The notes under the pieces: generated by a model | What the model saw: the letters and a program-made list of their open reading frames with translations, nothing else | The model's database searches: none | What the model was told of the DNA's origin: nothing | From: Candidatus Kapaibacterium sp. | GTDB taxonomy: Bacteria; Bacteroidota; Ignavibacteria; Palsa-1295 | Direction: 5' to 3' | NCBI GenBank assembly: GCA_035632315.1 | Contig: DASQGZ010000048.1 | Span: 64,740-128,739, forward strand | Length of the DNA stretch: 64,000 nucleotides | Made by a program: the position numbers and the translations under genes | Shown: piece by piece, positions 13,284-34,425 of the stretch | Position numbering within the stretch: the stretch's first letter is position 1 | Layout: the number at the start of each line of letters is the position of its first letter

Positions 13284-13329
13284 ATAGGTGCCTATTCGTT
13301 TTATAAGAGTAGGTAAAATGGGCACCTAT
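13284..13329. promoter_or_regulatory. Two copies of the near-palindrome ATAGG(TG/CA)CCTAT in the Y-family polymerase promoter. The second copy overlaps the start codon. This is a candidate repressor operator.
   Basis: ATAGGTGCCTAT at 13284-13295 and ATGGGCACCTAT at 13318-13329. The same 12-mer recurs upstream of the VOC gene at 17592. Confidence 0.3.
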
Positions 13330-14713
13330 GGTTTCTGTTATCGATTGCAATAATTTCTACATCTCCTGCGAGCGGAAGCTCGACCCGTCACTCGAGAAGC
13401 GGCCGGTCGTGGTGCTGTCGAATAACGACGGCGTGGTGATCTCGCGCTCGAATGAAGTAAAAGCGATGGGTGTCACAATGGCAGGGGCTGCCTACCAGTA
13501 TCGCGACTTGTTCAAAAAACACAACGTCAAAGTCTTCAGCGCGAACTTCAATTATTATATGCAGATCTCCGAACAAGTGATGTCGGTGATCCGCGATTAT
13601 TCACCGGAGGTCGAAGTCTATTCGGTTGATGAGGCTTTTATCAATTTGCGCGGCTTAGAGTGGAAGAAGCCGGCGATCTACCTCAAGGGACTTCGCGACC
13701 GAATTTGGGACGAGATCGGCATTCCTGTTTCTGTCGGCATCGCAGAAACGAAAACGCTTGCGAAGGCAGCGACCGAATTTTGCAAAAAAGACGAATCGTT
13801 CGGCGGCGTGATGGATCTCTACGATAATCCAAAACGAAATGATTATCTGCGTACGCTGCCTGTCGGCGATTTGTGGGGCGTCGGCAGACAATTCAATATC
13901 TTTCTTGAACAACAGAACATCAAAACAGCACTCCAGCTTATTGAACAGCCAGATGAGTGGATACTGCGGCATTTGCATATCGGCGGATTAAAAATGGTGT
14001 GGGAGCTTCGCGGCATTCCGTGCATTCCGGTCGAGGCAAATCTCGCGCCGCCAAAGCAGATCATGCGCTCGCGTTCGTTCGGACGCTATATCACCACAAA
14101 AAGCGAACTCAAAGAAGCCGCCGCTCTCTTCATCAGTATGGCTGCAGAATCGCTTCGCGCACATAAACTCGTCGCAGGCGTTGCCGGTGTATTTGTGCAT
14201 ACCAACCGATTCAACGACGATCCGAAATATTCGAACTCGCTCGCTGACGCGCTGTCGGAACCGACGGCATATACTCCCGCGCTGATCGCGCATATTCATC
14301 GGTTGGTCGATCTGATCTTTAAGGACGGATTTAAATATCAGAAGGTTGGCGTCATCCTCACTGATCTCGGTCCTGCCGAAAAAATGCAACTGACATTTTC
14401 GTATGATGAAACCTCCCTTAGCAAGCGCGAAGCTGTGATGCGCGCACTCGACAAACTCAATGCAAAATACCGCGAAAATCATTTGGTAATGCTTGCCGCC
14501 GAAGGCATCGAACATGGCTGGCACTCGAAACAGGAACATCTGTCAACTACAAAACCGACATACGTCGAACCGACCGAGCGAACCAGATTCCTGACGACGG
14601 TTTCTGTCCCCGGCATACCACAGCGCCCGAAGAAAGATCACACGCTCGAACCCGCAATGCAATCCCGTGCGCTCGGGAAGCAGGTTGCCGAACGATTGAT
14701 GGCAAACTCATAG
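13328..14713 (+). CDS. Y-family translesion DNA polymerase (UmuC / DinB-like)
   Basis: N-terminus IDCNNFYISCERKLDP...VVVLSNNDG is typical of UmuC/ImpB. It is 461 aa. Confidence 0.85.
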   Translation: MVSVIDCNNFYISCERKLDPSLEKRPVVVLSNNDGVVISRSNEVKAMGVTMAGAAYQYRDLFKKHNVKVFSANFNYYMQISEQVMSVIRDYSPEVEVYSVDEAFINLRGLEWKKPAIYLKGLRDRIWDEIGIPVSVGIAETKTLAKAATEFCKKDESFGGVMDLYDNPKRNDYLRTLPVGDLWGVGRQFNIFLEQQNIKTALQLIEQPDEWILRHLHIGGLKMVWELRGIPCIPVEANLAPPKQIMRSRSFGRYITTKSELKEAAALFISMAAESLRAHKLVAGVAGVFVHTNRFNDDPKYSNSLADALSEPTAYTPALIAHIHRLVDLIFKDGFKYQKVGVILTDLGPAEKMQLTFSYDETSLSKREAVMRALDKLNAKYRENHLVMLAAEGIEHGWHSKQEHLSTTKPTYVEPTERTRFLTTVSVPGIPQRPKKDHTLEPAMQSRALGKQVAERLMANS

Positions 14714-20385: not shown

Positions 20386-20546
20386 AAGTTTAGTACGATT
20401 AAATAGTTTGAAAATAGTGCTTATTTGATGGGGAGACAAACAAGATTTGGGATTAGGGACATGCCAGGGAAAATTAAAAATGTAAAATGTAAAATTGGGG
20501 AAATCGAGGGGAATCGGACATTCCGGAGGGGAAATGTGCCTTCTAT

Positions 20547-21854
20547 TTAAGACTTCTCTTTCAGCGACATCTTTTTCTTTTCAAGCAATTCCTTTTCCGC
20601 CGGAAGCGGCGCGAGTTCGATCGCACGTTCCAGAGATTTGATCGCGTCAGACGTTTGCTCCAACTGGTCGTAAAACTCTGCCTGCGTAGAATAGAACAGA
20701 TGATACGATTTGACAGATGGATTCTCTTTTATTCTCTCAAGTTCAGCCAGTGCAGATTCGGCTCCGTGGACCTTCGAAAGCGAGATCGCACGATTGAGCA
20801 GAACGAGTGGCGAGCTATCGAGTTGGATCAGGCTATCGTAAAGAGAAAGGATGTTTTTCCAATCTGTAGATTTGTAATCGGCCGCAATGCAATACGTTGC
20901 CGAGATCGCGGCGAGAATATGGTAGATGCTGAGGTCTCCATTCTCAGTTGATTGCTGCAGATAGCTCAGACCGATACGTTGTTTTTGTGTATCCCATAAG
21001 CTGCGATCCTGTTCAGCCATTGTCAGCAGATTTCCTTCGGCATCCTGGCGCGCAGCAAATCGCGATGAATCCAGGAACATCAGCGAGAGCAACGCATATA
21101 CATTTCCTTTCTGCCGAATCGCATTATCGTCGGCCAGCATCTGCGCCAGTCTGATGGCTTCTTCGCATAGTTCGTAGCGAATAAGGTTAGTGCCTTTCGA
21201 TGCGCTGTAGCCTTCGTTGAAGAGAAGATAGATCGTTTCAAGAACGGTGCTCTGCCGCTTTTCGAGATTTTTTCCTTCGGGCACTTCAAACGGAATTTTA
21301 TCTTCGCGGATTTTTTGTCTCGCTCTGACTAATCGTTTATGAATATTAACTTCCGTTGTCAGAAATGCTCTCGCAATTTCGGGAATGCTGAATCCGCAGA
21401 GCGTTTTTAGTGCGAGAGCAATTTGTGAGTCCGCAGAGATCGATGGATGGCAGCAGGTAAAGATCATGCGAAGCTGGTCGTCCTGGATTTCTTCTTCGGA
21501 AAAAAGATGATTTAGCGCCGGCTCGGCAGTCCATTCTGATTGCAAATAATGTGAAACTTCGGTTACATACTCGTTCTTATATTTCTCGCGGTTAAGGACA
21601 TTGAGTGCCTTGTTCCTGGCGACGCGGTAGAGCCATGCCGTCGGGTTATCAGGCACGCCTTTTTCTTTCCACTGACCGAGTGCTTCGATGAGTGAGTCCT
21701 GTACGACGTCTTCAGCCATTTCCAGGTTTCTTGAGCCAAAGATACGCGTAAGAACGGAAACGATCCTTCCCGTTTCATGTCGGGACAAATTCTCAATGAG
21801 ATCGTTAATATCCAATGTTTCTTCTTCGGTAGGCATACTGAAGGGCGTCATCAT
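20547..21854 (-). CDS. ECF-type sigma-70 family factor with a long C-terminal extension (DUF6596-like)
   Basis: Region 2 (DVVQDSLIEAL..W) and region 4 HTH followed by a ~200-aa TPR-like tail. Confidence 0.7.
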   Translation of the reverse strand: MMTPFSMPTEEETLDINDLIENLSRHETGRIVSVLTRIFGSRNLEMAEDVVQDSLIEALGQWKEKGVPDNPTAWLYRVARNKALNVLNREKYKNEYVTEVSHYLQSEWTAEPALNHLFSEEEIQDDQLRMIFTCCHPSISADSQIALALKTLCGFSIPEIARAFLTTEVNIHKRLVRARQKIREDKIPFEVPEGKNLEKRQSTVLETIYLLFNEGYSASKGTNLIRYELCEEAIRLAQMLADDNAIRQKGNVYALLSLMFLDSSRFAARQDAEGNLLTMAEQDRSLWDTQKQRIGLSYLQQSTENGDLSIYHILAAISATYCIAADYKSTDWKNILSLYDSLIQLDSSPLVLLNRAISLSKVHGAESALAELERIKENPSVKSYHLFYSTQAEFYDQLEQTSDAIKSLERAIELAPLPAEKELLEKKKMSLKEKS

Positions 21855-21913
21855 GGCCGAAATTCATCCTAACAGAGTTATTTTTAAAGAAAACTCCTTA
21901 CAAAAATACAAAA

Positions 21914-22008
21914 TAAAAAAAACCGTTAACGCAGGGAGCTATAGCGGCTTCAATATATACCACCGGTGAAGACTTACTTTCCCAAGCCTGACTGGCTAAG
22001 TATTATCA
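21914..22008 (-). repeat. Decayed copy 1 of the 5S rRNA 3'-end plus terminator unit
   Basis: An A-run, a degenerate hairpin and ~45 nt matching the 5S 3' end (GACTTACTTTCCCAAGCCTGACTGGCTAAGTATTATCA versus 31124-31160). The stop codon of gene 21996-22595 lies inside it. Confidence 0.55.
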
Positions 22009-22595
22009 ATGCCCCCAGAGGAGAATGCAAGAATTATATTTGCGTAAGTTCGCCAGTCCTTCATGCTCGTATCAATTCTTAAGTATGGAAGACGAGTTTT
22101 GCCAAGAGCATCAATTCTTCTTTGTTGAGAGGTTTGAACTGCAGCTATCGCATTCTCTCGAGATCCGTAATATGCAATCATCACATCGGCATATTCATTA
22201 TTCTCAGTGCGGTCAATGGATCGGCGTTCAGTAAGTGAAGCTTCGAAGCTAAGCAAAATAATACAAGCCCCCAATTCAAACAGCCGTTTGTCGAAAGCTT
22301 CCAATTTTTCCCAATAAGGAAAGAGAGCGTAGCCTGTAGGATGAAATCGCTCAACAACAATTATCTCGGATGGCTGTTTTTCCTTATGCTGCTCAATGTG
22401 GCGAAGACTTACTTCCAATGCATCAAAATGCGGCTCTGCTTTCCATGATTCATCTCGTACTTGCTGCATAAGACTACCCAGAGTTTCCTCTTCAGAAATA
22501 TAATATGTTGTTGTCGGCAAGAGTGTTTTTAAGTCTCTGATAACGGAGCTTTTTCCCGATCCGGTAACACCTTCTATGATTATGATTCGATTCAT
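21996..22595 (-). CDS. P-loop NTPase / kinase-like protein
   Basis: Walker A motif EGVTGSGKSS. The C-terminal 4 codons are encoded by the 5S-like repeat. Confidence 0.5.
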   Translation of the reverse strand: MNRIIIIEGVTGSGKSSVIRDLKTLLPTTTYYISEEETLGSLMQQVRDESWKAEPHFDALEVSLRHIEQHKEKQPSEIIVVERFHPTGYALFPYWEKLEAFDKRLFELGACIILLSFEASLTERRSIDRTENNEYADVMIAYYGSRENAIAAVQTSQQRRIDALGKTRLPYLRIDTSMKDWRTYANIILAFSSGGIDNT

Positions 22596-22671
22596 CGCAC
22601 GGGTAATGAGGCACAGCGCAAAATAATTCTATAAAAAACCTGTCAACCCAGAGCAATTTCTCCTAAAAACT

Positions 22672-22732
22672 AAAAACTTACAACTAACGATTACCCCACC
22701 TACTTCCCCAAGCCGACTTGCTAAATATCATC
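22672..22732 (-). repeat. Decayed copy 2 of the 5S 3'-end unit
   Basis: CCTACTTCCCCAAGCCGACTTGCTAAATATCATC is ~85% identical to the 5S 3' end. It contains the stop codon of gene 22728-23255. Confidence 0.5.
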
Positions 22733-23255
22733 CACTGGTCTTCGGTTTGCGCTTTAGAATCAGAGCACAAATGAGGCTGATGAAGACACCGACTGGAAAG
22801 ATCTCGAGGAATGTCATCCCTAATTCTATGAACGGATTGGCGTACCACTGCTTCCACTCGGCCATTTCCTTCGTTTTTGCCAGAATTACTGAATCCGATG
22901 CGCCGCTCTTTTTCAGGTTATTCACCATTTGTGCAGCATATTTATCGGCAAAATCGGGCAAGGCGATGGAGGAATAAATTTTCCAGCTTACTACATAAAA
23001 CACCGAAGCAATGATCGAGATATAGAGGCCAATGAGAAACGCTCTCCCAAAAGTCACGCTGCCGCCCAAATAATTATCGCGGTAATTGCGAATGCCGAAG
23101 AAGATCATCGAAAGCGAAACGATCATCGTGGCATAGCCCACCACCATGGAAGTCGAACTGCCTTCGGATGCCAATGGCACCGAAAACGAAATGACCATTA
23201 AGACGACAATGATAAGCCCGGCAATAATGCCGTAGGTGAAAACAACTTTACGCAT
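22728..23255 (-). CDS. Hypothetical 4-TM membrane protein
   Basis: 175 aa with four hydrophobic helices. Confidence 0.4.
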   Translation of the reverse strand: MRKVVFTYGIIAGLIIVVLMVISFSVPLASEGSSTSMVVGYATMIVSLSMIFFGIRNYRDNYLGGSVTFGRAFLIGLYISIIASVFYVVSWKIYSSIALPDFADKYAAQMVNNLKKSGASDSVILAKTKEMAEWKQWYANPFIELGMTFLEIFPVGVFISLICALILKRKPKTSG

Positions 23256-23397
23256 AGGTGTATTGATTAATGATTTTTTTTTTTTGGTTTATTTCGATCA
23301 CATGAATCGACGGCAGCAAAAATAGCTATTTCCACCGGAAATGTCAATAGCACTTTAGTGTATTTCTGCAAAAATAATGACATTTAGCACTTTGGTG

Positions 23398-23832
23398 CTA
23401 TTCGATGAGACCAATACGGCGCGCTTTTTCGATCGCCTGTGTGCGGCGCTCGGCTTCGAGCTTCCGGAATAAGGTCGAAGTGTGCTTCTTGACGGTATTG
23501 AGCGAAAGAAATAATCTATCTGCGATTTCCTGATTGGAATGCCCGGCGGCGATCAGATGAAGCACTTCGCTTTCACGGGGACTGATACCGAGATCGGCAG
23601 GAGATATCCGGGCAGATTGAGCCACTTCGGCAAGCATGAACTGCGTTCGGTGAGTTGCCGTCAGCTTCCGGCCTATCCAAAGGCCGAGCAATGTGAACAC
23701 CAGAGCAATAACGCCGACATAGTACTCTATCTTCAGATCATAGACAAAGTATTTATAATCGACGAACTTCAGCAGCAACAGCAGTCCCGCCATCGAAAGC
23801 GCATATAAATAGATCGGTCGTTTCACGGACAC
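23398..23832 (-). CDS. Membrane-anchored LuxR/GerE-family HTH transcriptional regulator
   Basis: N-terminal TM helices and a C-terminal LuxR HTH (ESEVLHLIAAGHSNQEIADRLFLSLNTVKKH). Confidence 0.7.
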   Translation of the reverse strand: MSVKRPIYLYALSMAGLLLLLKFVDYKYFVYDLKIEYYVGVIALVFTLLGLWIGRKLTATHRTQFMLAEVAQSARISPADLGISPRESEVLHLIAAGHSNQEIADRLFLSLNTVKKHTSTLFRKLEAERRTQAIEKARRIGLIE

Positions 23833-23912
23833 AAAGATACGAAGAAAGCCAAAAAACCCGCTAGCACGAAGCGATAGCGCGCTAACATAGAAAAAACAAG
23901 AACTATGGGCAG

Positions 23913-24623
23913 TTATTCAGATTGTTTTCCAAAACCAAACAGTACGCCGAGGGTAATGCGAAAATCTCTGGTAAAAATTTTCTGATTATCAACCTCTCCT
24001 CCACCCAGATCTTTACCATATTGAGCATTAAGATTCGTTAACCCGTAATCATAGGCTGCTTCGAGAAAAATCATCGTCGTCGGACTAACATTATAGGTCG
24101 CCCCTACTCCACCTATAATTCCGAAATTTATTGAAGTAATGTCGCTATCAGGTATATCGATTGTCGAATCTGTCACAGACGTAGTAACTCTCTGCTTTGC
24201 AGAAAGTTTGAATCCAATCTCAGGCCCTATGAATACCATCGGCCTCACATTCCCAGAGCCGAACGATATTTTGAAAAGAATTGGGATTTCAAAATAAGAG
24301 CCATTATACGAGGATGAATATTTGTATGATGTACCAAATAATGTAAACGTCTGATCTGTGGTACCTCCTTTTTGCACATAAGACGGCTGCGCCGACACGC
24401 CAAAATGATCTGAAAACCAGTAGTCAAATTCCGCGCCGATGGCAATGCCGGTTGTCGATCCGTGCGTCAAGCCGGATATTGTGTCAGGGTCGAATGATAG
24501 CGAGCCGATATCAATTCCACCTCTAGCACCAATCCAGATACGAGGTGATTGAGCATGAAGCTGGCCTCCTGCAGTGGTGAGGAGCAACAATGCCCCGAGA
24601 ACCCAAACATGACGTTGTTCCAT
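23913..24623 (-). CDS. Outer-membrane beta-barrel (porin-family) protein
   Basis: Signal peptide, alternating amphipathic strands and a C-terminal aromatic-rich strand. Confidence 0.6.
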   Translation of the reverse strand: MEQRHVWVLGALLLLTTAGGQLHAQSPRIWIGARGGIDIGSLSFDPDTISGLTHGSTTGIAIGAEFDYWFSDHFGVSAQPSYVQKGGTTDQTFTLFGTSYKYSSSYNGSYFEIPILFKISFGSGNVRPMVFIGPEIGFKLSAKQRVTTSVTDSTIDIPDSDITSINFGIIGGVGATYNVSPTTMIFLEAAYDYGLTNLNAQYGKDLGGGEVDNQKIFTRDFRITLGVLFGFGKQSE

Positions 24624-24679
24624 ATAAAGGTCATTGAGTGAATTACAACAAAGATACTAAAGAATCTTGATGCGAGATA

Positions 24680-24745
24680 AAAAAAAACTCGAATGCAAGA
24701 GCGATAGCGGGGTAACATACAACCCCCTGACGATGACCTACTTTC
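24680..24745 (-). repeat. Decayed copy 3 of the 5S 3'-end plus terminator unit. It is a candidate distal boundary of the island.
   Basis: AAAAAAAACTCGAATGCAAGAGCGATAGCGGGGTAACATACAACCCCCTGACGATGACCTACTTTC is ~85% identical to 31068-31135 (terminator, flank and the last 25 nt of 5S). Confidence 0.55.
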
Positions 24746-25037
24746 AGATTCTTCGCGGAGTTTTCACTGAGCAGATGTGAATGTGCTCAGAATGACACCG
24801 CTGGTTGAGCTTTATAGATTAATATCACAAAAGTATATAAAAATTTGATAAATTACACTATTTATCAATATTTTATCAATAATACTTGCATTTTTGATTT
24901 TTATTTCGTATATTTGCAGCCAGAGATTAGCCAACATATCTGAAGCCGGCATCCTGCCCGCTCATCATTCAGCGTTTCCGGCACCTCCTTCATTCAAGTA
25001 CTGCGAAGTACATTTATTGCCAAGTACTTTTATCGTT

Positions 25038-26426
25038 ATGCAACAGACAACTCCTTCCGAGTTCGCGCATTCGCGGCTTGGGCTTACTTCATGGAAAAAA
25101 TTCGATGCCATTTTCGAAGCCGTCGAAGCGGGGCATCGGCGCATACTCGTTCGAAGCGCAAATGGCGTCGGCAAAACGACGGCGCTTGCGGCGCTTTGCA
25201 ACTGGAAGCTTTCGACTTCGGACGAATGCATCGTCCTCACCACAAGCTCCAGCGAAAAACAGCTTCGGCATAATCTTTGGGGTGAGATCAGGGCGCAGGC
25301 GATGAAAGCGAATCTGTATGAACCGAAAGATATCACTGATACGCGCATCAAGCTCGGCGAAAAAAGATTTATGCTTGCGGTTTCTCCTGCAAAGCCAGAA
25401 TCCGCGCAGGGGTTTCATGCTGCAAGCATGCTCATTGCCGTTGATGAAGCCACCGGGGTTCGCCGCGATATTCTTTCTTCGCTGATCGCAACGGCAAGCA
25501 GTGACGACGTGCAGATCGTGATGATCTATAATCCCATCACACCCGATAGTTTTGTTTATGAAGCAGAGCGATCGGGCGATTGGCACCTCGTCACGATCAG
25601 CGCGCTCGAACATCCGAACGTTGCAAAGAAAAAAACGAAGATCGCAGGCGCCGTTACCTTGAAAGCGACGGAGCATAACCTCAAACTCTGGAGCGAAGAA
25701 GCGGCGCCGGATGACGGCGAATCGTTCGAGCTGCACGGCAAATGGTGGCGCAAGACGCTCGAAGTCTGCCGCCGCATTCTCGGTCAGTGGTACGACGATT
25801 TTGGCGAAGGTATCATCTCGCGCGCGCTCGTGAATGCTGCAATCACCAATACAAATGCCGAGCGCGGAGCGAAGTCGATGGGTGTCGATCTTGCCGGCGG
25901 CGGCAAGGACGAGACCGTGATCGCCCGCTTCGATGGAGGCATCGGGTTGCCGCTGATCGTTATGCGCTCATCAAAAATTCTTGATATCGTTTCACGCATC
26001 GAAGAAGAATACCGCTCAGGATTTACGCGCATTGCCATCGATGAAACAGGTGTCATCGGCACGGCGTCCGAACTGCTTGCTGTGCGCGATATCAAGGTGC
26101 ATTCGGTTGCATTCTCGGCAAAGGCGATCGGCACATACGACAGCCGCGTCCGAACGCTCGGCAACAGGCGAATGGAAATGTATTACCATCTGCGCGAAGA
26201 ACTGCGCGCCGAAAAATTGCAATTAGTAGATGACGGAAAACTTGCCGAAGAACTTTGCACGATGAAGCTATCGACCAAAAGCACGAACGATAAATATTAC
26301 CTCGAACCGAAAGAGAATATCACCGCCCGCCTCGGCCACTCCCCCGATCGCGCCGATGCTACAGCGCTGGCACGATATGCGAATTTATTAGCGGAATATG
26401 ATGCCAAACCGCTCGTGATGTTTTGA
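25038..26426 (+). CDS. Phage terminase large subunit-like protein (ATPase plus RNase-H-like nuclease). The track ORF starts at 24894, but the likely start is MQQTTPSEF.
   Basis: Walker A NGVGKTT, Walker B VDEA and a C-terminal nuclease domain beginning GVDLAGGGKDETVIA and ending PDRADA. Upstream is a Bacteroidetes-type -7 element TATATTTG. Confidence 0.65.
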   Translation: MQQTTPSEFAHSRLGLTSWKKFDAIFEAVEAGHRRILVRSANGVGKTTALAALCNWKLSTSDECIVLTTSSSEKQLRHNLWGEIRAQAMKANLYEPKDITDTRIKLGEKRFMLAVSPAKPESAQGFHAASMLIAVDEATGVRRDILSSLIATASSDDVQIVMIYNPITPDSFVYEAERSGDWHLVTISALEHPNVAKKKTKIAGAVTLKATEHNLKLWSEEAAPDDGESFELHGKWWRKTLEVCRRILGQWYDDFGEGIISRALVNAAITNTNAERGAKSMGVDLAGGGKDETVIARFDGGIGLPLIVMRSSKILDIVSRIEEEYRSGFTRIAIDETGVIGTASELLAVRDIKVHSVAFSAKAIGTYDSRVRTLGNRRMEMYYHLREELRAEKLQLVDDGKLAEELCTMKLSTKSTNDKYYLEPKENITARLGHSPDRADATALARYANLLAEYDAKPLVMF

Positions 26427-26465
26427 GGGCATATCCGTTTGGGATTGAAAGTGGCTCCGAGAGGC

Positions 26466-26975
26466 TTAACGTTTCAATCTTGCCGAGAATTCAACCCCAA
26501 TTTCCGCAACAAAATCAGAATCATTGACCCAGCGAACATTCATATTTTCACAGACATTTGGAATTCTTACATTTCTTGCACTTGGGGCAGTTACTTTCCC
26601 CTCCTTGGTAACAACGCAAGCATTTTCTTTCATAGCGTGTGCAATTACCCAAGGGTCAGCAAGCGACCGATTCCTTCTATTATCCACGAGAAACTTATGC
26701 AGTGGATTCGTGTCGTATATTTTTTGCAAACATTTTGTAACTTCTTCATCTATTGGCTTTTTCTCTATGCTACTTTCTCGCAACCATTCTGCCAGGTCAT
26801 CATCCGTTTTCGTAATTTCTTCGAAGACATTTTCTGGTAGAAAAATTATCCCCGTGTGACCAATATCATTGAGAATACTCCAATAATCCGGGCAGAATTT
26901 TGGAGAATAATAAAATTGCCAAGCCTGAATAAGGACGTTGGCGTCCAAACAATATTTATCAGAGCGTGGGGGCAT
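26466..26975 (-). CDS. DUF4411-like PIN-fold protein, putative nuclease/toxin
   Basis: 169 aa with the N-terminus YCLDANVLIQAW. It lies 8 nt downstream of the ImmA/IrrE gene, so it is an operon partner. Confidence 0.55.
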   Translation of the reverse strand: MPPRSDKYCLDANVLIQAWQFYYSPKFCPDYWSILNDIGHTGIIFLPENVFEEITKTDDDLAEWLRESSIEKKPIDEEVTKCLQKIYDTNPLHKFLVDNRRNRSLADPWVIAHAMKENACVVTKEGKVTAPSARNVRIPNVCENMNVRWVNDSDFVAEIGVEFSARLKR

Positions 26976-26983
26976 TATTAAAA

Positions 26984-28168
26984 TTAATAAAGCTGTGCTA
27001 GCATTTTAGGGAATTTAGTGAGTGAAATATTTAATAAGCTGCTTGCCTGGGTCGGTTGAATAAATCCACCTTTGAAAGCATCAATAACAGTCTGTGTAAA
27101 TAATTTGCCATTTTTATTTGCAAGCAACAAATAATAGTTAGGCCCCCCTTCTTTCTCTTTAGAAGCAAGTTTCTTGGCAGTCTCCTTTTCAATGTATTTC
27201 TGAAACTCTTTGTCGAGTATATTCTTAATAACCCTGTATTTCTCTAAGGAAATTAAACCTAAATTGTACCCGCGTACTAACAACGCTAACGAGCTTACGC
27301 CAAAAATTTTTGAAGTCTTGTACAATTTTTCCTGAGAATGGAAAAGTGACGGATCCAACTTCTTGATTATCTGGTAAGGCATTAATGCCGATGCGGCTAC
27401 TTCATTGCAAAAATATTCAACTGGTTCAGGATGGCCTGCAGATTTTGCCTGCGGAATTATGTCATTAGAAATTCCGGATGCTGCAATCCAAACATGTGCA
27501 AGTTCATGTACAAGTGTAAATAACTGAGGAGTATCCCAATCATTGGAATTGATAAACACGAATGGTGCATGCTGGTCGGCAAGAGCAAAACCTTGCATCT
27601 CGTCGCTATCTAATAAGAGTTTCGAATGTATTAAGCTTGTTCTTGAAATAAATATCCCAGCCCGTTCAGCGCTTGCAATCCATTCACGATACGGATTCAC
27701 CGTTTTATAGTGAGCTGGATCAATTTGCAAGGTCTGTAGGATATCAGCAGCTACCTTTGCCGGGTCATCTGATGAAGAAAATTTTCCAACGAACGGAAGC
27801 TTCTCTTCTCCATTCTCTTGGTAAAATTCTCTCATCCATTCTTGTTTTTGACGAAGTTCTCTAATAATAAATTCGGATGCCGTCCCCAATGGCTTCGCAC
27901 TTTTTTTTCGAAAATCCTTTAATGGTTGAAAGTCTATTGGGGGCTCGGGAAGAAAGAAAATGGCAAAGGGTCTTTTATAGACTTTCGCTAATTTCTGTGC
28001 TTGTTTAATAGTTGGCAGGCCTGTACCGGCTTCCCATTCCAGTAACTTGTCAGTATCAATTGCCGCTTTTAAGGCAGCAATTTCAGGAGAAATTTTTGCA
28101 GTTTCTCGAGCCCACTTAAGGACGACGGGTGTAACGTTTGCTCGGTCTGCCATTAGAGATGAAAACAC
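26984..28168 (-). CDS. XRE-type HTH fused to an ImmA/IrrE family zinc metallopeptidase (DUF955 / M78)
   Basis: N-terminal HTH and the HELAHVW HEXXH motif. Confidence 0.8.
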   Translation of the reverse strand: MFSSLMADRANVTPVVLKWARETAKISPEIAALKAAIDTDKLLEWEAGTGLPTIKQAQKLAKVYKRPFAIFFLPEPPIDFQPLKDFRKKSAKPLGTASEFIIRELRQKQEWMREFYQENGEEKLPFVGKFSSSDDPAKVAADILQTLQIDPAHYKTVNPYREWIASAERAGIFISRTSLIHSKLLLDSDEMQGFALADQHAPFVFINSNDWDTPQLFTLVHELAHVWIAASGISNDIIPQAKSAGHPEPVEYFCNEVAASALMPYQIIKKLDPSLFHSQEKLYKTSKIFGVSSLALLVRGYNLGLISLEKYRVIKNILDKEFQKYIEKETAKKLASKEKEGGPNYYLLLANKNGKLFTQTVIDAFKGGFIQPTQASSLLNISLTKFPKMLAQLY

Positions 28169-28202
28169 ACAAGCACCTATAAAGTGGTTCCATAATGTAG
28201 AC

Positions 28203-28754
28203 TTATATTACTTCCCAGGCAGAAATTTTGGCCTGTTGATGGATAGGATGCTTTAAACCAGTACGTATTTGCTCTATACGATTCCCCAATTTAATTTTTA
28301 CTACCGATTTTGCAATTGCCTCAAAAGATTTTAAAAGAGGTTCAGTGCTAATAATAGCCGGACTATGTTCATAGCTAATCGTTAACACTGCTTTTCTTTC
28401 CTTACCCTTCCATTCCCGAAGTTTTAAGCAATCGCCTATCGCGCTTGAATTCCCCGGATATGGATGGAGGAGATTCACTGTCCAATTTTCAGCTTCTTTG
28501 CCGTTATCACCATACGGCCGTGCAATTTTAAACTCAATTGCCCAATAATCTTCTATCAGAAGATCTGGATTGCGTTTTGCCTTGCATCGCCCATCGAAAT
28601 GTTTAAGCTGATTCAGGTAGTATTCTATTCTCTTGACCAGTTGCGGCTCACCATACGGCCCGACTCCGGGATGATAGGCCTTAAACGGCGGATCGTTTTT
28701 ATCAATTTGAACCAGTGCATCTGAGATGTCTTTTACAACATTGTTCAGTGTCAT
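28203..28754 (-). CDS. Hypothetical protein with a PD-(D/E)xK-like nuclease motif
   Basis: RNPD-LLI-EDYWAIEFK fits D...(D/E)xK spacing. It lies 34 nt upstream of the ImmA/IrrE gene on the same strand. Confidence 0.35.
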   Translation of the reverse strand: MTLNNVVKDISDALVQIDKNDPPFKAYHPGVGPYGEPQLVKRIEYYLNQLKHFDGRCKAKRNPDLLIEDYWAIEFKIARPYGDNGKEAENWTVNLLHPYPGNSSAIGDCLKLREWKGKERKAVLTISYEHSPAIISTEPLLKSFEAIAKSVVKIKLGNRIEQIRTGLKHPIHQQAKISAWEVI

Positions 28755-28881
28755 AGTAGTAAGATATTTCTTGAAAGAAATAAAAGTTGCTTATGCAGAG
28801 TGATAGTCGTTTACCATACAATCCCTGTCAACGATCCGTTCGCCACCGATCACCTTTTGCGATCTTGGGAGAGCCGAATTT

Positions 28882-28903
28882 CTGGTGATTAAAAATCACC
28901 AGT
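28882..28903. promoter_or_regulatory. Perfect palindrome CTGGTGATT-aaaa-AATCACCAG ~130 nt upstream of the PD-(D/E)xK gene. It is a candidate operator.
   Basis: 9-bp arms. This is the only such site in the window. Confidence 0.3.
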
Positions 28904-28976
28904 TAATATATGTTGCTCCGAAGTGACGACATATAACTTATTGTTCACTATTTATCACATTTAACAATTTACACCT

Positions 28977-29147
28977 ATGAAAACCCAATACATGAATAAC
29001 GTCCCGTTTCTTCCGGGAGAATTAACCATTGTGACATCCGATCATGCCGAGCTGGCGATGCAGCATTCGGCGCGGCTTGCCGATTCGTTTCGCAGGGCGC
29101 GGCTGAACGGGAATAATAGGGGTGAAAACACTGTTTTATCAATGTGA
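28977..29147 (+). pseudogene. 5' fragment (49 codons plus RBS) of a paralog of gene 29696-30400. It forms direct repeat 1 (28975-29109).
   Basis: ~95% nucleotide identity to 29694-29828. The reading frame is open for 49 codons and then diverges and stops. Confidence 0.6.
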
Positions 29148-29320
29148 AAAAACTCACAATCGAAACCAATACCCACCTCAACGACCGCGATAAGCGGCGG
29201 GCTGCTATTGTGCATTCGGTCATTGCGTCGTCCCGGATCGAAGGGATATTGTTGACCAAAGCGCAGGAAGAAGCCATTGCCCGTCGGGTTGACAAGCGTC
29301 TTAAAAAAGACTCCGAATGA
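29144..29320 (+). CDS. VbhA/YhfG-like Fic-antitoxin remnant (58 codons, GTG start)
   Basis: Contains SSRIEGI, matching the (S/T)xxxE(G/N) Fic-inhibitory motif. It is convergent with, and overlaps, the Fic fragment. Confidence 0.4.
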   Translation: MKKLTIETNTHLNDRDKRRAAIVHSVIASSRIEGILLTKAQEEAIARRVDKRLKKDSE

Positions 29321-29600
29321 TCCGTTTCATCGGTTCATAGTTTTCATCGGCGGCCGCCTGGACCGCTGCAACATATTCGTCAAATCGTTCTTCTGTGATC
29401 TTCTCGAAGTGCAGTAATTCGAACCCCTGCTGAACAGCCATTGCATTTGCCAGAATTCGCATCACGCGACCGTTGCCTTCGCGGAACGGATGGATGAATA
29501 ACAACTCGGCATGGACGACGGCGATCGCATCTATCAATGCGTCACGACCCGGATACAGCAGCGGCAATTGTTTTAGAATATCCGTTTCGAATTTCTGCAT
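29301..29600 (-). pseudogene. N-terminally truncated Fic (filamentation induced by cAMP) domain protein
   Basis: HPFREGNGRVMR is the canonical Fic motif. At 99 aa it lacks the N-terminal helices. Confidence 0.6.
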
Positions 29601-29650
29601 TGTCAGCGGCAGGTACTTTCAGGTAAGAGCGTAATCAACCACCCCAACCC

Positions 29651-29680
29651 CGCCTTGAAAAGGCGAGACAGATTTTTTTT
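29651..29680 (+). terminator. Hairpin CGCCTT-gaaa-AGGCG followed by a T8 run
   Basis: Seen directly in the sequence. Confidence 0.45.
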
Positions 29681-29695
29681 AATCTATCAACATCT

Positions 29696-30400
29696 ATGAA
29701 AACCCAATATATGAATAACGTCCCGTTTCTTCCGGGAGAATTAACCATTGTGACATCCGATCATGCCGAGGCGACGATGCAGCACTCGGCGCGGCTTGCC
29801 GATTCGTTTCGCAAGGCGCGGCTGAACGTCCTTGTCATTAATTGCGGGATGAACGAGCGCCGCTTCCGCCAGCATTATCACGATACGTACGGCTCCGGTA
29901 TCGATACAACACCGACGGTGATCCTGAAGACATCGCTTTTAGGAAATGTCGCCGGCGACCGCGAAGGGATCGATCAGATCGTGCGCGAAGCGAAGATCGG
30001 CGTCGTGATCCTTGCCGGCTGGGAATTTGCATCGGGAACGCGCCGCCGCCGCAACAAATTATTCTTTTACCTTCGCGAGCTCATGGCCGAACGCGATATT
30101 GCCGTCATCGTGTATTCGCAAACGATGAATAATCCTGTTGCCGGAAAAATGGGCGCACTCGGAAAGCTTGCCGCCGCGGCAATGGAAGTGGTGAAGATCG
30201 ATTCGTCGAAAGTGCTGGAAGCGGTCGTGAAAAAGCCGCCCGTGATCGCGTGGGAATCGGCAGATGAGATGCATACCATTGAACAGGGGGTACAGCGATT
30301 AGTCAGGAATATCAATGAGTTAGCAGACCATCAGTGCACATCGGATGAAGATGCACGGCAAATAGAGAATGACGATGGAGACTACGGCGTGGCGGTGTGA
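29696..30400 (+). CDS. Hypothetical protein. The beta-strand pattern suggests a RecA-like fold without a Walker A motif.
   Basis: 234 aa. Its first 49 codons are duplicated upstream at 28977. Confidence 0.35.
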   Translation: MKTQYMNNVPFLPGELTIVTSDHAEATMQHSARLADSFRKARLNVLVINCGMNERRFRQHYHDTYGSGIDTTPTVILKTSLLGNVAGDREGIDQIVREAKIGVVILAGWEFASGTRRRRNKLFFYLRELMAERDIAVIVYSQTMNNPVAGKMGALGKLAAAAMEVVKIDSSKVLEAVVKKPPVIAWESADEMHTIEQGVQRLVRNINELADHQCTSDEDARQIENDDGDYGVAV

Positions 30401-30442
30401 AAAAGCCGATGTACGAATTTCCGTTGCCGAAGGGCCAGGGAT

Positions 30443-31069
30443 ATGTATATTTGCAAGAAGGATATAATTATGATACTACCTAAACTGTTACTTTCACTGA
30501 TCATCTCGGTTTCTATTTATAGTTTTTTCCCTCAGGGCGACGATCTGAATCTCGGATTTGAGCGAGTTGGTTACAAAGCCAAACCCATTGGCTGGTATGC
30601 CGGAGGAGGAGGAGGAAAGAAAGATGACCTTGACGGTTATCTCGGAGAGTGCGATTCGACGACAGTTCACTCGGGAAAATATTCTTTGCACTTGAAATAT
30701 CTCAAAGGTGACGGCTTCGGAGTCGGAACGAAAACACTCGACATCGCCCCACTCAGAGGCAAAACCATTCGCTTCAGCGGCTGGATCAAAACCCACAACG
30801 TCGGCGGGAAGAAAGATCACAATTTCGACGGGTACGCAGGTTTGTGGTGGAGAGTAGATGGGCCGGATCACAAGACGTTAGCCTTCAATAATATGCAAGA
30901 TAGCTTGGTCAACGGTACCCGTGATTGGCAGAGATATTCATTTGAATTACCGGTGGGAGAAACCGCTACGAATATAGATTTCGGAGTTCAAATGGCAGGG
31001 AAAGGCGAAGCATGGTTCGATGATCTGTCCATCGATACCAACGGGGTCCATTATTTAGGTTGGAAATAA
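30443..31069 (+). CDS. Hypothetical secreted protein
   Basis: Signal peptide and a G-rich linker. No catalytic motifs. Confidence 0.4.
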   Translation: MYICKKDIIMILPKLLLSLIISVSIYSFFPQGDDLNLGFERVGYKAKPIGWYAGGGGGKKDDLDGYLGECDSTTVHSGKYSLHLKYLKGDGFGVGTKTLDIAPLRGKTIRFSGWIKTHNVGGKKDHNFDGYAGLWWRVDGPDHKTLAFNNMQDSLVNGTRDWQRYSFELPVGETATNIDFGVQMAGKGEAWFDDLSIDTNGVHYLGWK

Positions 31070-31074
31070 AAAAA

Positions 31075-31106
31075 CCCTCGAACGCAAGAGCGATCGAGGG
31101 TTAACA
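31075..31106 (-). terminator. rRNA operon terminator (CCCTCGA...TCGAGGG hairpin followed by U-run on the minus strand)
   Basis: Sits immediately 3' of the 5S gene. Confidence 0.5.
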
Positions 31107-31111
31107 TACAA

Positions 31112-31228
31112 CCCCTGGCGACGACCTACTTTCCCAAGCCTGACTGGCTAAGTATCATCGGCTTACAAGGGCTTAACTGCTCTGTTCGGAATGGGAAGAG
31201 GTGTAGCCCCTTGGATATAGTCGCCAAA
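31112..31228 (-). rRNA. rrf: 5S ribosomal RNA
   Basis: Minus-strand sequence CCATTCCGAACAGAG...GTTAAGC...GGGAAAGTAGGTCGTCGCCAGGGG has the canonical 5S helices. Confidence 0.85.
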
Positions 31229-31439
31229 AGGAAACTTTATGAGTGGTCAGTGATCAGTGGCCGGTGGTCAGCTGATCAAAGACAGCGAACGGTGTGAATT
31301 GCGAATGATACGAGTATCGAACTATTGAATCTACATTCAATAAGTCTAAATTGTGACGAACACTATACCAAACACTATAGTAATGCGGTAGTAAGGTGTT
31401 TTGCGCGAGAATGTCGCACAAACTATCTCTACTACGAAA

Positions 31440-34425
<2,986 letters not shown>

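Follow-up and report, generated by a model that had tools for sequence, protein, structure and literature searches.

A series of 5S rRNA 3'-end scars behind a 23S-5S operon of Candidatus Kapabacteria and its possible origin by recombination

The region behind the rRNA operon

The window analysed here, a 64-kb stretch of a Candidatus Kapabacteria genome, contains a 23S rRNA gene (Rfam LSU_rRNA_bacteria, 2797.7 bits) and downstream of it an intact 5S rRNA gene (Rfam RF00001, 85.5 bits, model positions 1-120). Neither an SSU rRNA nor a tRNA gene was found in the window, and the 23S-5S operon in it is unlinked from 16S. The rrn terminator is common to the 5S gene and the convergent gene p208 (stop codon 31067-31069) and has homologues 3' of the 5S gene in eight related loci. 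The variable region that starts there spans 9.3 kb or more (21.9-31.1 kb). From the operon outwards the following features were found.

31490-34416 (-), 23S rRNA gene, the long conserved homology arm in the mechanism proposed below
31113-31228 (-), intact 5S rRNA gene
31068-31112 (-), rrn terminator, read from the sequence: spacer, hairpin CCCTCGA..TCGAGGG (31075-31100) and T-run
30443-31069 (+), p208, secreted hypothetical protein, adjoining the rrn terminator
29696-30400 (+), p234, RecA/DnaB fold without P-loop (AF2, Foldseek), right-hand scaffold gene of the defence slot
29301-29600 (-), C-terminal fragment of a Fic-domain gene (Pfam Fic 2.9e-10, profile positions 54-92 of 93)
29144-29320 (+), 58-aa ORF convergent with the Fic fragment; termed VbhA-like from its SxxxEG motif (SSRIEG) alone, without a Pfam match
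28960-29109 (+), p234', a second copy, 150 nt long, of the start of p234, comprising 17 nt of upstream sequence and codons 1 to 44-45
28765-28845 (-), scar c5: decayed terminator and about 24 nt of the 5S 3' end (nhmmer E=3.7e-17, alignment)
26466-28754 (-), low-GC cargo operon of three genes (Pfam, PADLOC, PHROG): p183 (28203-28754, 183 aa), HTH-ImmA/IrrE (26984-28168, Pfam Peptidase_M78 3e-13) and DUF4411 PIN-like (26466-26975, Pfam DUF4411 7e-38)
25038-26426 (+), lone TerL-family ATPase-nuclease (profiles), left-hand scaffold gene of the slot
24800-24930 (+), AT-rich, putatively promoter-like region upstream of TerL (by eye)
24674-24745 (-), scar c2: 21-22 nt of 5S, spacer and a chimeric hairpin that has lost its pairing
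23913-24623 (-), OMP beta-barrel porin, single-gene segment (Pfam OMP_b-brl_2 3.7e-28)
23851-23892 (-), scar c4: terminator and spacer, 0 nt of 5S (nhmmer E=5.8e-9, alignment)
22728-23832 (-), two-gene segment: LuxR/GerE regulator (23398-23832, Pfam GerE 8e-19) and DUF4199 (22728-23255, 1.5e-30)
22633-22732 (-), scar c6: 47 nt of 5S and decayed terminator (blastn 88.9% over 36 nt, alignments)
21996-22595 (-), 199-aa P-loop kinase-like protein, single-gene segment (weak Pfam AAA_22 and Thymidylate_kin matches)
21911-22007 (-), scar c3, the outermost: 47 nt of 5S and terminator (blastn 79.8% over 99 nt, E=4e-14)
20547-21854 (-), ECF sigma factor with DUF6596 (Pfam), first gene past the scarred region

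The comparators are all MAG or metagenome contigs, each genome being seen in fragments only; the relative called R was joined from L004 and L087 through a 1441-nt overlap of 100% identity. p208 probably represents the original convergent neighbour of 5S. In R a frameshifted homologue (L004 7993-8561) adjoins a 5S scar, in L086 one adjoins a terminator that by eye looks homologous, and in L085 one lies 6 kb away from the 5S gene.

Scars of the 5S 3' end in the window and its relatives

A sequence-only reading of this locus had noticed one decayed copy of the 5S 3' end and terminator and took it, together with the true 5S gene, for the two att sites of a single 6.4-kb element. The duplication is real. 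The distal copy at 24674-24745 aligns with 31063-31133 at 86% identity over 72 nt (blastn E=7e-17; nhmmer E=1.4e-20), it comprises 21-22 nt of the 5S 3' end, spacer, terminator hairpin and A-run, and a 29-nt degenerate pattern matches just these two sites with 0 matches expected by chance (shuffling). The observation was incomplete, as four further scars and the 150-nt p234' duplicate had been missed. Five scars and the true 5S end make up six copies in one orientation (E-values 1e-22 to 6e-9 in 64 kb), confined to the 9.3 kb downstream of the 5S gene; nhmmer found no further scar elsewhere in the window, and the repeat is not a dispersed one. A single element does not fit, since both of its supposed ends are members of this series and scar c5 falls inside the proposed island, within the slot between TerL and p234.

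The scars delimit small segments. Most carry one or two genes, and most run in the direction of the rRNA operon; the downstream end of each segment is one decayed copy of the 5S 3' end and rrn terminator. The DUF4199 stop codon overlaps the inner edge of scar c6, and that of the 199-aa kinase-like gene lies within scar c3. The same architecture with different cargo recurs in at least four related Kapabacteria genomes, with seven scars in R, two in L085, three to four in L095 and one in L096 (1731-1811), which by eye looks orthologous to c5 and has the same downstream hairpin. The length of 5S retained varies from scar to scar (0, 0, about 14-20, 21, 24, 39-47, 45, 47, 47, 47, 52, 62, 84 and 85 nt), 5 of 14 inner boundaries lying 45-47 nt from the 5S 3' end. 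Stop codons lie at most about 20 nt from the scar in most segments and within it in 5 of 11, about 20 scar-bounded genes are co-oriented with rrn against 2-3 opposite, and the start codon of a scar-bounded gene follows the previous T-run by 9-57 nt. The 5S variant of the scars follows their own lineage: c3 bears the window-specific G of CCCAAGCC, as does c6, and all R-type scars have an A. Terminator stems covary and the inner stem-loop is conserved. Many scars are degraded (60-87% identity), with the hairpin or most of the sequence gone in c2, c6, R_B, R_E and L085 scar 1. In L095 one cassette was duplicated along with its scar, and a Bro-N protein is among the cargo.

Integrase and transposase domains were absent from the scanned segments and from about 40 Pfam-annotated ORFs of the window, and about 25 segments of five genomes gave no recombinase. 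No segment has a phage structural gene, and no viral contig bears a 5S end; for the 6.4-kb interval the lack of integrase and phage structural genes had already been noted. Comparison with relatives, suggested earlier as a proof of mobility through empty and occupied sites, gave a divided answer: cargo differs at every interval, but the order TerL ... p234 ... 5S is kept between the window and R, and neither a donor-recipient pair nor a clean empty site was found among the related genomes compared.

The TerL-p234 scaffold and its slot

Is the terminase-like gene the relic of a virus? The assignment as a large-subunit homologue stands. The gene matches phrog_2 (1e-24), its family profile matches the PDB large-terminase chains 8dkr (2e-8) and Sf6 gp2, and the protein is 26-27% identical to phage TerLs across 95-98% of its length, with a Pfam Terminase_6N score of 21.2 bits, slightly below the cut-off of 22. 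Walker A K46, Walker B D136/E137 and the nuclease residues D284, D335, D437 and D440 are invariant across 28 homologues. The proposal of a degraded prophage is not supported, as the gene is intact and constrained by strong purifying selection (91% amino acid identity between window and R, dN/dS 0.077 at a dS of about 0.67) and is no decaying remnant. Its lineage, of lone TerLs, is conserved across Kapabacteria along with p234. A search of IMG/VR viral contigs gave a best match of 30% identity for TerL and no relatives of p234, and no small-terminase candidate was found. In the putative promoter region a cgTATATTTGca motif is seen, which by eye also occurs upstream of TerL in R and L002.

The claim that p234 is RecA-like was borne out at the fold level: an AF2 model (pLDDT 78.5) matches DnaB, RadA, KaiC and RAD51 paralogues in Foldseek (E about 1e-6), and a Walker A motif is absent from the family (27 sequences). 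Its dN/dS against R is 0.17. TerL and p234 are also paired in L002, L003, L021, L087 and L088; the slot between them holds differing defence genes in five genomes (window, R, L002, L003, L088) and is empty in L021. TerL and p234 are an old two-gene scaffold around a slot for interchangeable anti-phage genes. In L002, L003, L021 and L088 the pair lies away from the 5S gene and has no scars.

In the window the slot holds the operon of HTH-ImmA/IrrE (RmrA-like), DUF4411 and p183, with matches to PADLOC RmrA (2e-14) and phrog_2439 (1.5e-54) and a GC content of 40-41%, lower than in the window as a whole (47.8%) or in TerL and p234 (53.5%). p183 has no Pfam, PHROG, PADLOC or PDB match and its single-sequence model (pLDDT 32) is unusable; D64, E74 and K76, at least 90% conserved across the family, are consistent with a PD-(D/E)xK motif and make it a candidate member of that group. 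The Fic fragment retains the HPFREGNGR motif and lacks the N-terminal half (PADLOC PDC-S04 1.8e-35, model positions 104-200 of 205). p234' is 92% identical to 29679-29828 and 91% to p234 of R; L096 has its own p234', ending at the same point, and a TerL remnant of the last 30 aa only. The earlier assignments of ImmA/IrrE, DUF4411 and truncated Fic, and of the cargo as accessory and defence-like, agree with these results, and of the three natures then offered (degraded prophage, satellite, defence island) the last fits best.

Such a slot resembles the P2/P4 hotspots (PMC9122126) and the core defence hotspots cDHS1/2 of P. aeruginosa (PMC10250203), whose flanks are conserved genes or non-coding RNAs, in that two conserved genes flank interchangeable anti-phage cargo, with one genome empty and no mobile-element hallmark. 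Transfer by homologous recombination through the flanks was proposed for cDHS (PMC10250203). The slot described here differs in that a terminase homologue of domesticated appearance and a RecA-fold protein, not housekeeping genes, form its flanks, and in being embedded in an rrn-anchored scar array.

Possible origins of the scar series

We consider it about an even bet (probability roughly 0.5) that the region behind the rrn operon is a long-lived hotspot of recombination with this conserved operon as its anchor, not one decayed virus inserted by an integrase. DNA would repeatedly be exchanged or added by recombination, with the 23S-5S operon as homologous arm and, in the inner slot, TerL and p234 as homology arms; the other end would be joined illegitimately, within or just past the resident 5S end. 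Each event would regenerate an intact 5S gene and terminator, and the old end would move outward as a scar and then decay. In its favour are the confinement of the six copies to the 9.3 kb behind 5S, the recurrence of the architecture with other cargo, the variable 5S lengths, the lack of recombinases in the scanned segments, the partial copies of p234 and TerL, the lineage-specific 5S variants of the scars, the selection on both scaffold genes, the changing content of their slot, the low GC of the cargo operon and the distance from viral sequences. Three routes are conceivable: homology-facilitated illegitimate recombination with incoming DNA, rrn copies exchanging sequence ectopically, or repair of breaks at the rrn 3' end. 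The first is described for natural transformation (de Vries and Wackernagel, 2002; Prudhomme et al., 2002; via PMC2884548): one arm is homologous, the other end is illegitimate, and foreign DNA can be added and partial anchor copies left behind; it is known from laboratory crosses and, for this locus, is no more than a proposal. In SAR11 the flanking 23S and 5S genes of HVR2 were proposed in 2007 as homologous recombination sites spreading variants (PMC2217521). That hypervariable region is likewise attached to a split rRNA operon, but it is located between the 23S and 5S genes, its content is of cell-surface and LPS genes together with an integrase gene, and the source passages on it make no mention of rRNA-end scars; the region studied here is downstream of 5S, scarred, and filled with defence, toxin-antitoxin and miscellaneous single genes.

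Homology-facilitated illegitimate recombination alone leaves the clustered boundaries, the co-orientation and the tight gene-scar junctions unexplained. These regularities, like the short T-run spacing, are unexpected under random illegitimate joining and would be compatible with a directed cassette-forming or site-specific process. Since only genome fragments were seen, a recombinase could act in trans, and serial integrase-driven insertion or an integron-like cassette system is possible.

In the former, integrase elements (prophages, satellites, islands) would have inserted successively at the 5S 3' end, duplicating the att core each time, with integrases and most element genes deleted later; this is the model of the sequence-only reading turned into a tandem array. 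Tandem islands at tRNA and tmRNA genes likewise have an intact RNA gene at one end and same-orientation partial 3'-end copies between accessory blocks, the boundary classes (about 20-24 and about 45-47 nt) could reflect two or three integrase specificities, and TerL, Bro-N and the toxin-antitoxin modules are typical of mobile elements. We nevertheless regard it as unlikely. The target here is a 5S gene with its terminator, a full-text literature search gave no report of elements targeting a 5S 3' end, and the roughly 25 segments are devoid of recombinases and often consist of one gene of 0.5-0.8 kb, too small for an element. Furthermore, the repeat length is inconstant, with boundaries also at 0, 52, 62 and about 85 nt, scar c5 lies within the conserved TerL-p234 pair, p234 and TerL bear the same kind of partial duplication, and viral contigs with a 5S end are lacking.

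In an integron-like platform, promoterless cassettes, each ending in a hairpin site that arose from 5S-end and terminator sequence, would be inserted and shuffled at the 5S 3' end by a recombinase encoded elsewhere and expressed through read-through from the rRNA promoter. The compact, co-oriented, apparently promoterless genes, each ending in a hairpin repeat with its stop codon adjoining or overlapping the scar, the short gap between T-run and start codon, the strong promoter beside them, the covarying stems with their conserved inner stem-loop and the cassette duplicated in L095 recall integron arrays. Yet no IntI-type integrase or other recombinase was found near the array, the repeats are of 5S-end and terminator origin and show a decay not expected of sites maintained for recombination, the scars follow the host lineage instead of travelling with cassettes, and p208 is the sole cassette seen in two arrays, so that this explanation appears quite improbable.

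Alternatively, TerL and p234 might be the engine themselves: a terminase-like nuclease would cut near the rrn 3' end, the adjacent region would be packaged as in lateral transduction into capsids from a phage or an HK97-type cluster elsewhere in the genomes, and the scars would be cleavage ends recombined in recipients. Defence-gene lateral transduction is documented elsewhere (PMC12829572). TerL retains its catalytic residues under selection and lies within the array in the window and R, some MAGs have a second TerL paralogue, which in JBBQWV01 lies beside a portal gene and whose lineage is found within a portal-protease-capsid module in other MAGs, and boundary clustering could reflect preferred cut sites. 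This is highly doubtful, as the pairs away from 5S have no scars, L085 and L095 show arrays without TerL in the sequence seen, the L096 scar persists with TerL down to 30 codons, and a small-terminase candidate is lacking.

Chance similarity, a generic dispersed repeat or mis-assembly as source of the 5S repeats is refuted: 29022-29740, between both p234 5' copies, lies outside the independent Logan contigs, but these reproduce 20470-29021 at 100% and 29741-31683 at 99.8%, the E-values, the confinement to 9.3 kb and the shuffling result speak against chance, and the same pattern is found in four other assemblies.

5S-derived scars in the window and its relatives

Behind the 23S-5S rRNA operon of the window lies a series of decayed copies of the 5S 3' end and the rrn terminator, here called scars. 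The window belongs to a Candidatus Kapabacteria / Kapaibacterium MAG, the name under which NCBI lists proteins identical to its own.

31490-34416, minus strand: 23S rRNA gene
31113-31228, minus strand: 5S rRNA gene
28765-28845: scar, about 24 nt of 5S and a decayed terminator
24674-24745: scar, last 21-22 nt of 5S, spacer and terminator
23851-23892 (c4): scar, terminator and spacer only
22633-22732 (c6): scar, 47 nt of 5S and a decayed terminator
21911-22007 (c3): scar, 47 nt of 5S and terminator

The partial duplication of the 5S 3' end proposed from the sequence alone was confirmed, as 24674-24745 matches 31063-31133 with 86% identity over 72 nt (blastn E=7e-17; nhmmer E=1.4e-20), and a degenerate 29-mer matches these two places only, with zero matches expected in shuffles. 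The four additional scars, found by repeat finding and with a profile made from the copies, have the same orientation as 24674-24745, and no comparable copies occur elsewhere in the 64-kb window. Rfam at permissive threshold detected the true 5S alone between 21.8 and 31.3 kb, since their shortness or decay keeps the scars from scoring. A generic dispersed repeat was discarded as an explanation because the copies are confined to the DNA behind the 5S.

As five scars lie in the 9.3 kb behind the 5S, this stretch is cut into segments. Outward from the 5S, the first carries p208 (a secreted hypothetical protein), p234 (a RecA-fold protein), a Fic fragment, a VbhA-like ORF and a 150-nt duplicate of the p234 5' end, and closes with a scar; the second consists of the p183/ImmA/DUF4411 operon and a lone terminase-large-subunit-like gene (TerL) and closes with the scar at 24674-24745. 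Further outward follow a porin, a scar, LuxR and DUF4199 genes, a scar, a small P-loop protein, a scar and an ECF sigma factor. The island that the sequence-only reading had drawn at 24680-31228 does have the repeat at both borders, but it is not a single element and comprises two segments of a longer series.

The 5S end is followed by a spacer of 11-12 nt, a strong hairpin (CCCTCGA..TCGAGGG, 31075-31100) and a T-run that is touched by the stop codon of the convergent gene p208. In the hairpin of 24674-24722 the left arm (CTCGA) corresponds to the present-day terminator and the right arm (TAGCGGGG) to the ancestral type found in relatives and older scars, and this chimera suggests a crossover inside the terminator loop. 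Neither 16S nor tRNA genes are present anywhere within the 64-kb window, so the 23S-5S operon is unlinked from the 16S; SSU rRNA and tRNA genes are also absent from the 2.7 kb upstream of the 23S in the relative L095 (L095 5056-11226).

The same scar phenomenon with different cargo is found in five related assemblies. One 5S sequence is identical in R, L093, L095, L096 and L098, five other related assemblies, and that of the window (31113-31228) deviates from it at several positions, for example CCCAAGCC versus CCCAAACC in relatives. Because of this deviation the first database scans, with a pattern containing the window-specific G (CCCAAGCCTGACTGGCTAAGTA), gave 0 matches in genome or metagenome contigs; a corrected degenerate pattern led to 7 metagenome loci. 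The closest relative, R, is a composite of two loci, L004 and L087, that overlap by 1441 nt at 100%, and its TerL and p234 are 91% and 84-88% identical to those of the window.

Gene orders in relatives (numbers of aa denote proteins; TA, toxin-antitoxin)
R: 263 aa, scar; 228 aa and frameshifted p208, scar; TA pair, scar; 138 aa, TerL, HD-CE, ORC/CDC6-like, CARF-like, scar; 184 aa, scar; p234 and PIN/DUF433 TA, scar; 196 aa, scar; 160 aa, terminator-5S-23S
L085 (23S 91% identical, 5S 96%): 5S; YoeB TA; scar; JmjC; scar; HNH, Arr, DUF6252, hydrolase, p208
L095: 5S; T9SS protein; scar; Bro-N; scar; two small genes; scar; one gene
L096: 5S, 470 nt, p234' (a p234 copy cut at the same point as p234' of the window), scar, T9SS protein, TerL remnant

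None of these four relatives offers a clean empty allele, and the cargo between scars differs. The scar of L096 resembles, by eye, an ortholog of the window scar at 28765-28845, and its TerL is reduced to the last 30 codons. Longer 5S fragments are present in L094, L097 and L099. The p208 homologue of R (L004 7993-8561) is split by a frameshift into ORFs of 97 aa and 92 aa; immediately after it comes a 5S fragment, about 84 nt long, that lacks a terminator. No 5S remnant accompanies the p208 homologue in L084, and in L086 none was detected by nhmmer, a decayed one being suspected by eye. In L095 the gene ends of two neighbouring cassettes (860-960 and 1650-1760) are homologous and their junctions identical (ataaaaccg|tctgtgattcatggg); here one cassette is duplicated in tandem along with its own scar.

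Several regularities hold across the series. The lengths of 5S kept in the scars are 0, 0, about 14-20, 21, 24, 39-47, 45, 47, 47, 47, 52, 62, 84 and 85 nt and cluster partly, at 45-47 nt (5 of 14 inner boundaries) and at 14-24 nt. Scars bear the 5S variant of their own lineage, with G in c3 and c6 of the window and A in all R-type scars. Moreover, the scar-bounded genes are almost all co-oriented with the rrn and start 9-57 nt after the preceding T-run, which leaves little room for promoters. Most segments have a stop codon no more than about 20 nt away from a scar, and in 5 of 11 it falls within the scar. Several cassette ORFs thus end on a stop codon supplied by 5S-derived sequence (window 21996-22007 and 22728-22732; L087 9764-9776 and 10462-10464; L095 2684-2721).

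The slot between the terminase-like gene and p234

The assignment of a terminase large-subunit homolog proved sound: TerL matches phrog_2 (1e-24), phage TerLs are 26-27% identical over 95-98% of its length, and its family profile matches terminase chains in the PDB (8dkr, 2e-8; Sf6 gp2, 2e-4), with a Pfam Terminase_6N score 0.8 bit under the cut-off. An N-terminal Walker A/B ATPase is joined to a C-terminal RNase H-like nuclease with conserved acidic residues, and all of 28 homologues share Walker A K46, Walker B D136/E137 and nuclease D284, D335, D437 and D440. Compared with its counterpart in R, the TerL of the window has a dS of 0.67 and a dN/dS of 0.077; the gene is under purifying selection and is not prophage debris. 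A recent single insertion was likewise rejected, since the relative at dS of about 0.67 shares the linkage TerL ... p234 ... 5S. TerL is the only PHROG structural match in the interval, no portal or capsid gene stands beside the lone TerL in the window, R, L002 or L003, and relatives in IMG/VR are at most 30% identical.

The fold of p234 is predicted to be of RecA/DnaB type without a P-loop, in agreement with the RecA-like hypothetical of the sequence-only reading; its dN/dS between the window and R is 0.17, and IMG/VR holds no relatives of it. TerL and p234 have a GC content of about 53.5%, the cargo operon between them 40-41% and the window 47.8%. The two genes flank differing defence cargo in several genomes and are found empty in one, as hotspot flanks would be.

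Cargo between TerL and p234
Window: RmrA-like and DUF4411
R: CARF-like (8.5e-68), HD-CE and ORC-like
L003: NsnB/AriA-like ATPase
L002: PD-Lambda-5_A-like, C5-MTase, HNH and AbiEii (5e-129)
L088: Type II MTase and REase-like genes
L021: none, TerL and p234 adjacent

The sequence-only reading was right about the defence character of the interval. In the window, DUF4411 (7e-38) and the HTH-ImmA/IrrE domain (3e-13, together with 13 PADLOC RmrA models) were both recovered. The 394-aa ImmA/IrrE protein also matches Peptidase_M78, and its best RmrA match has an E-value of 2.2e-14; RmrA we take to be the RosmerTA antitoxin. RmrT models did not match the neighbours of this protein, and DUF4411 (PIN-like) or p183, the first gene of the operon, could be its toxin partner. 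p183 gave no match to Pfam, PHROG, PADLOC or PDB profiles, and a single-sequence AF2 model had a pLDDT of 32; its family shares an almost invariant D..ExK pattern, as would fit a PD-(D/E)xK nuclease. The Fic toxin is indeed truncated, to the C-terminal half of the domain, and the 58-aa ORF called VbhA-like on its SSRIEG motif alone is convergent with it and has no Pfam match; with an incomplete Fic domain and a candidate antitoxin that is not co-oriented, the two do not form a typical Fic/VbhA pair. Exact-protein look-ups of the porin, p234 and p208 matched only Logan contigs of the same organism.

The 150-nt duplication of the p234 5' end is direct (28960-29109 versus 29679-29828, 92% identical), and the duplicates flank the VbhA-like ORF and the Fic fragment. 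The copy at 28960-29109, p234', is 91% identical to the p234 of the relative and truncated at the same point as in L096, and the 5S scar adjoining it has decayed to about 60%.

Origin of the scar series

How could such a series arise? The usual explanation for variable islands is that integrases act at tRNA genes. We consider it about an even bet (probability roughly 0.5) that recombination has recurred here over a long time, with the rRNA operon as the anchor of the hotspot, and infer the following mechanism for it. The conserved 23S-5S would provide a homologous arm, a role that TerL and p234 may take at the inner slot, and illegitimate joining within the resident 5S end, or shortly behind it, would close the other side. 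This would rebuild the 5S and its terminator, and the previous end would come to lie farther out, as a scar. Anchoring on the rrn would explain the common orientation of the scars, the variable joints, the scars made from protein anchors and the lack of recombinases; it would also explain why scars carry the 5S variant of their own lineage and why the cargo differs in every relative despite a conserved backbone. Neither a donor-recipient pair nor an empty allele was recovered among the loci examined.

Parts of this scheme have precedents. For SAR11, homologous recombination was proposed to take place at the 23S and 5S genes on either side of HVR2 (PMC2217521), and core defence hotspots of P. 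aeruginosa are flanked by conserved genes or non-coding RNAs (PMC10250203). Homology-facilitated illegitimate recombination is established in the laboratory, going by the references cited in PMC2884548. Tandem accretion linked to RNA genes is of a known kind, but here the target, the 5S, is unusual and a recombinase is absent; defence hotspots with conserved flanks are known as well, but here the scaffold is an unusual terminase/RecA-fold pair.

Clustered boundaries, scar-linked stop codons, co-orientation and the chimeric hairpin are not explained by anchored recombination, and for this reason three rival explanations stay alive. The first, serial integrase-driven insertion at the 5S 3' end, is unlikely. 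Classical att-type integration, as initially proposed, is made unlikely by the lack of any recombinase in about 25 segments of five genomes and by retained 5S lengths from 0 to about 85 nt; unlike in one family of integrase elements, the crossover position is not constant. In line with the sequence-only reading, neither integrases nor phage structural genes were found in the interval or in the roughly 40 window ORFs scanned with Pfam; transposases were likewise not found there, and no integrases were found in L004, L095 and L096. Many segments consist of one gene of 0.5-0.8 kb, a scar sits between TerL and p234, a conserved pair elsewhere, and partial duplication is not specific to the 5S, as seen in the 150-nt p234 duplicate and in the truncated p234' and 30-codon TerL remnant of L096. 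Furthermore, a scan of viral contigs for a 5S-end attP gave 0 matches, and literature searches found no element targeting the 5S 3' end, SAR11 HVR2 being an analogy only. A single decayed prophage must also be abandoned, as structural, replication, lysis and capsid-hijacking genes are missing apart from TerL and viral TerL relatives are at most 30% identical.

An integron-like platform with a recombinase acting in trans is slightly less likely still: no integrase is near the array, and the scars stem from the 5S and its terminator and have in many cases lost their fold. Transfer driven by TerL itself is improbable. An artefact is hardly credible; two independent Logan contigs from SRR6788488 match the window, at 20470-29021 with 100% and at 29741-31683 with 99.8%.

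It could be imagined, though this is doubtful, that a natural array of gene cassettes uses the 5S 3' end and terminator as its recurring recombination site, with the domesticated terminase and its RecA-fold partner promoting exchange between cells. Compact promoterless genes co-oriented with the rrn would then be captured, stacked behind the strongest promoter of the cell and expressed by read-through. If true, the array would be a functional analogue of an integron without integron integrase.

Returning to recombination anchored on the rRNA operon, in at least five genomes of a phylum that has hardly been studied the operon end documents, scar by scar, how genes were gained again and again. 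If the anchor is indeed the operon, foreign genes can land, in whatever species, on the most conserved DNA of the cell, and the mechanism can be read from a series of dated junctions. A terminase homologue kept by purifying selection as the fixed flank of a defence-gene slot is moreover a new, easily searchable marker for anti-phage systems in Bacteroidota/Ignavibacteriota relatives.

Further observations on the loci

The gene upstream of the 23S encodes a BNR/T9SS protein. In the left flank of the window lies a Y-family DNA polymerase gene (IMS, IMS_C, DUF4113; 13328-14713), and the other genes of both flanks are ordinary housekeeping genes (biotin synthesis, cytochrome c, CLC channel, DXR, RseP-like protease). 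In L096 two tandem copies of the Acido-Lenti-1 RNA motif (RF01687), both scoring above the gathering threshold, lie between p234' and the 5S scar (1591-1637 and 1663-1709); a sub-threshold copy is in the TerL-p234 cargo of L002 (16679-16725), and no copies were detected in the window. A dispersed hairpin repeat (cctcaccccNgccctctcc-loop-ggagaggg) is present in intergenic hotspot DNA of several Kapabacteria loci (L003 5440-5690; L087 9660-9710; L095 1650-1670; L021 8930-9070).

A second TerL paralogue lineage, 40-47% identical, is the sole lineage found in an HK97-type head module. This syntenic module (TerL, opposite-strand membrane protein, portal, protease, major capsid, head-tail adaptor) is present in at least 10 different Ignavibacteriota/Kapabacteria MAGs (L014, L016-L020, L022-L025, L033; e.g. 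L020 9320-21066) and adjoins a gene that by eye resembles glycogen phosphorylase. Since its position is conserved across species, the module may be a GTA-like cluster that became domesticated, or a prophage of great age. Two TerL paralogues each are carried by 2 MAGs, JBBQWV01 (L003 and L012) and JAUZOQ01 (L004 and L008).
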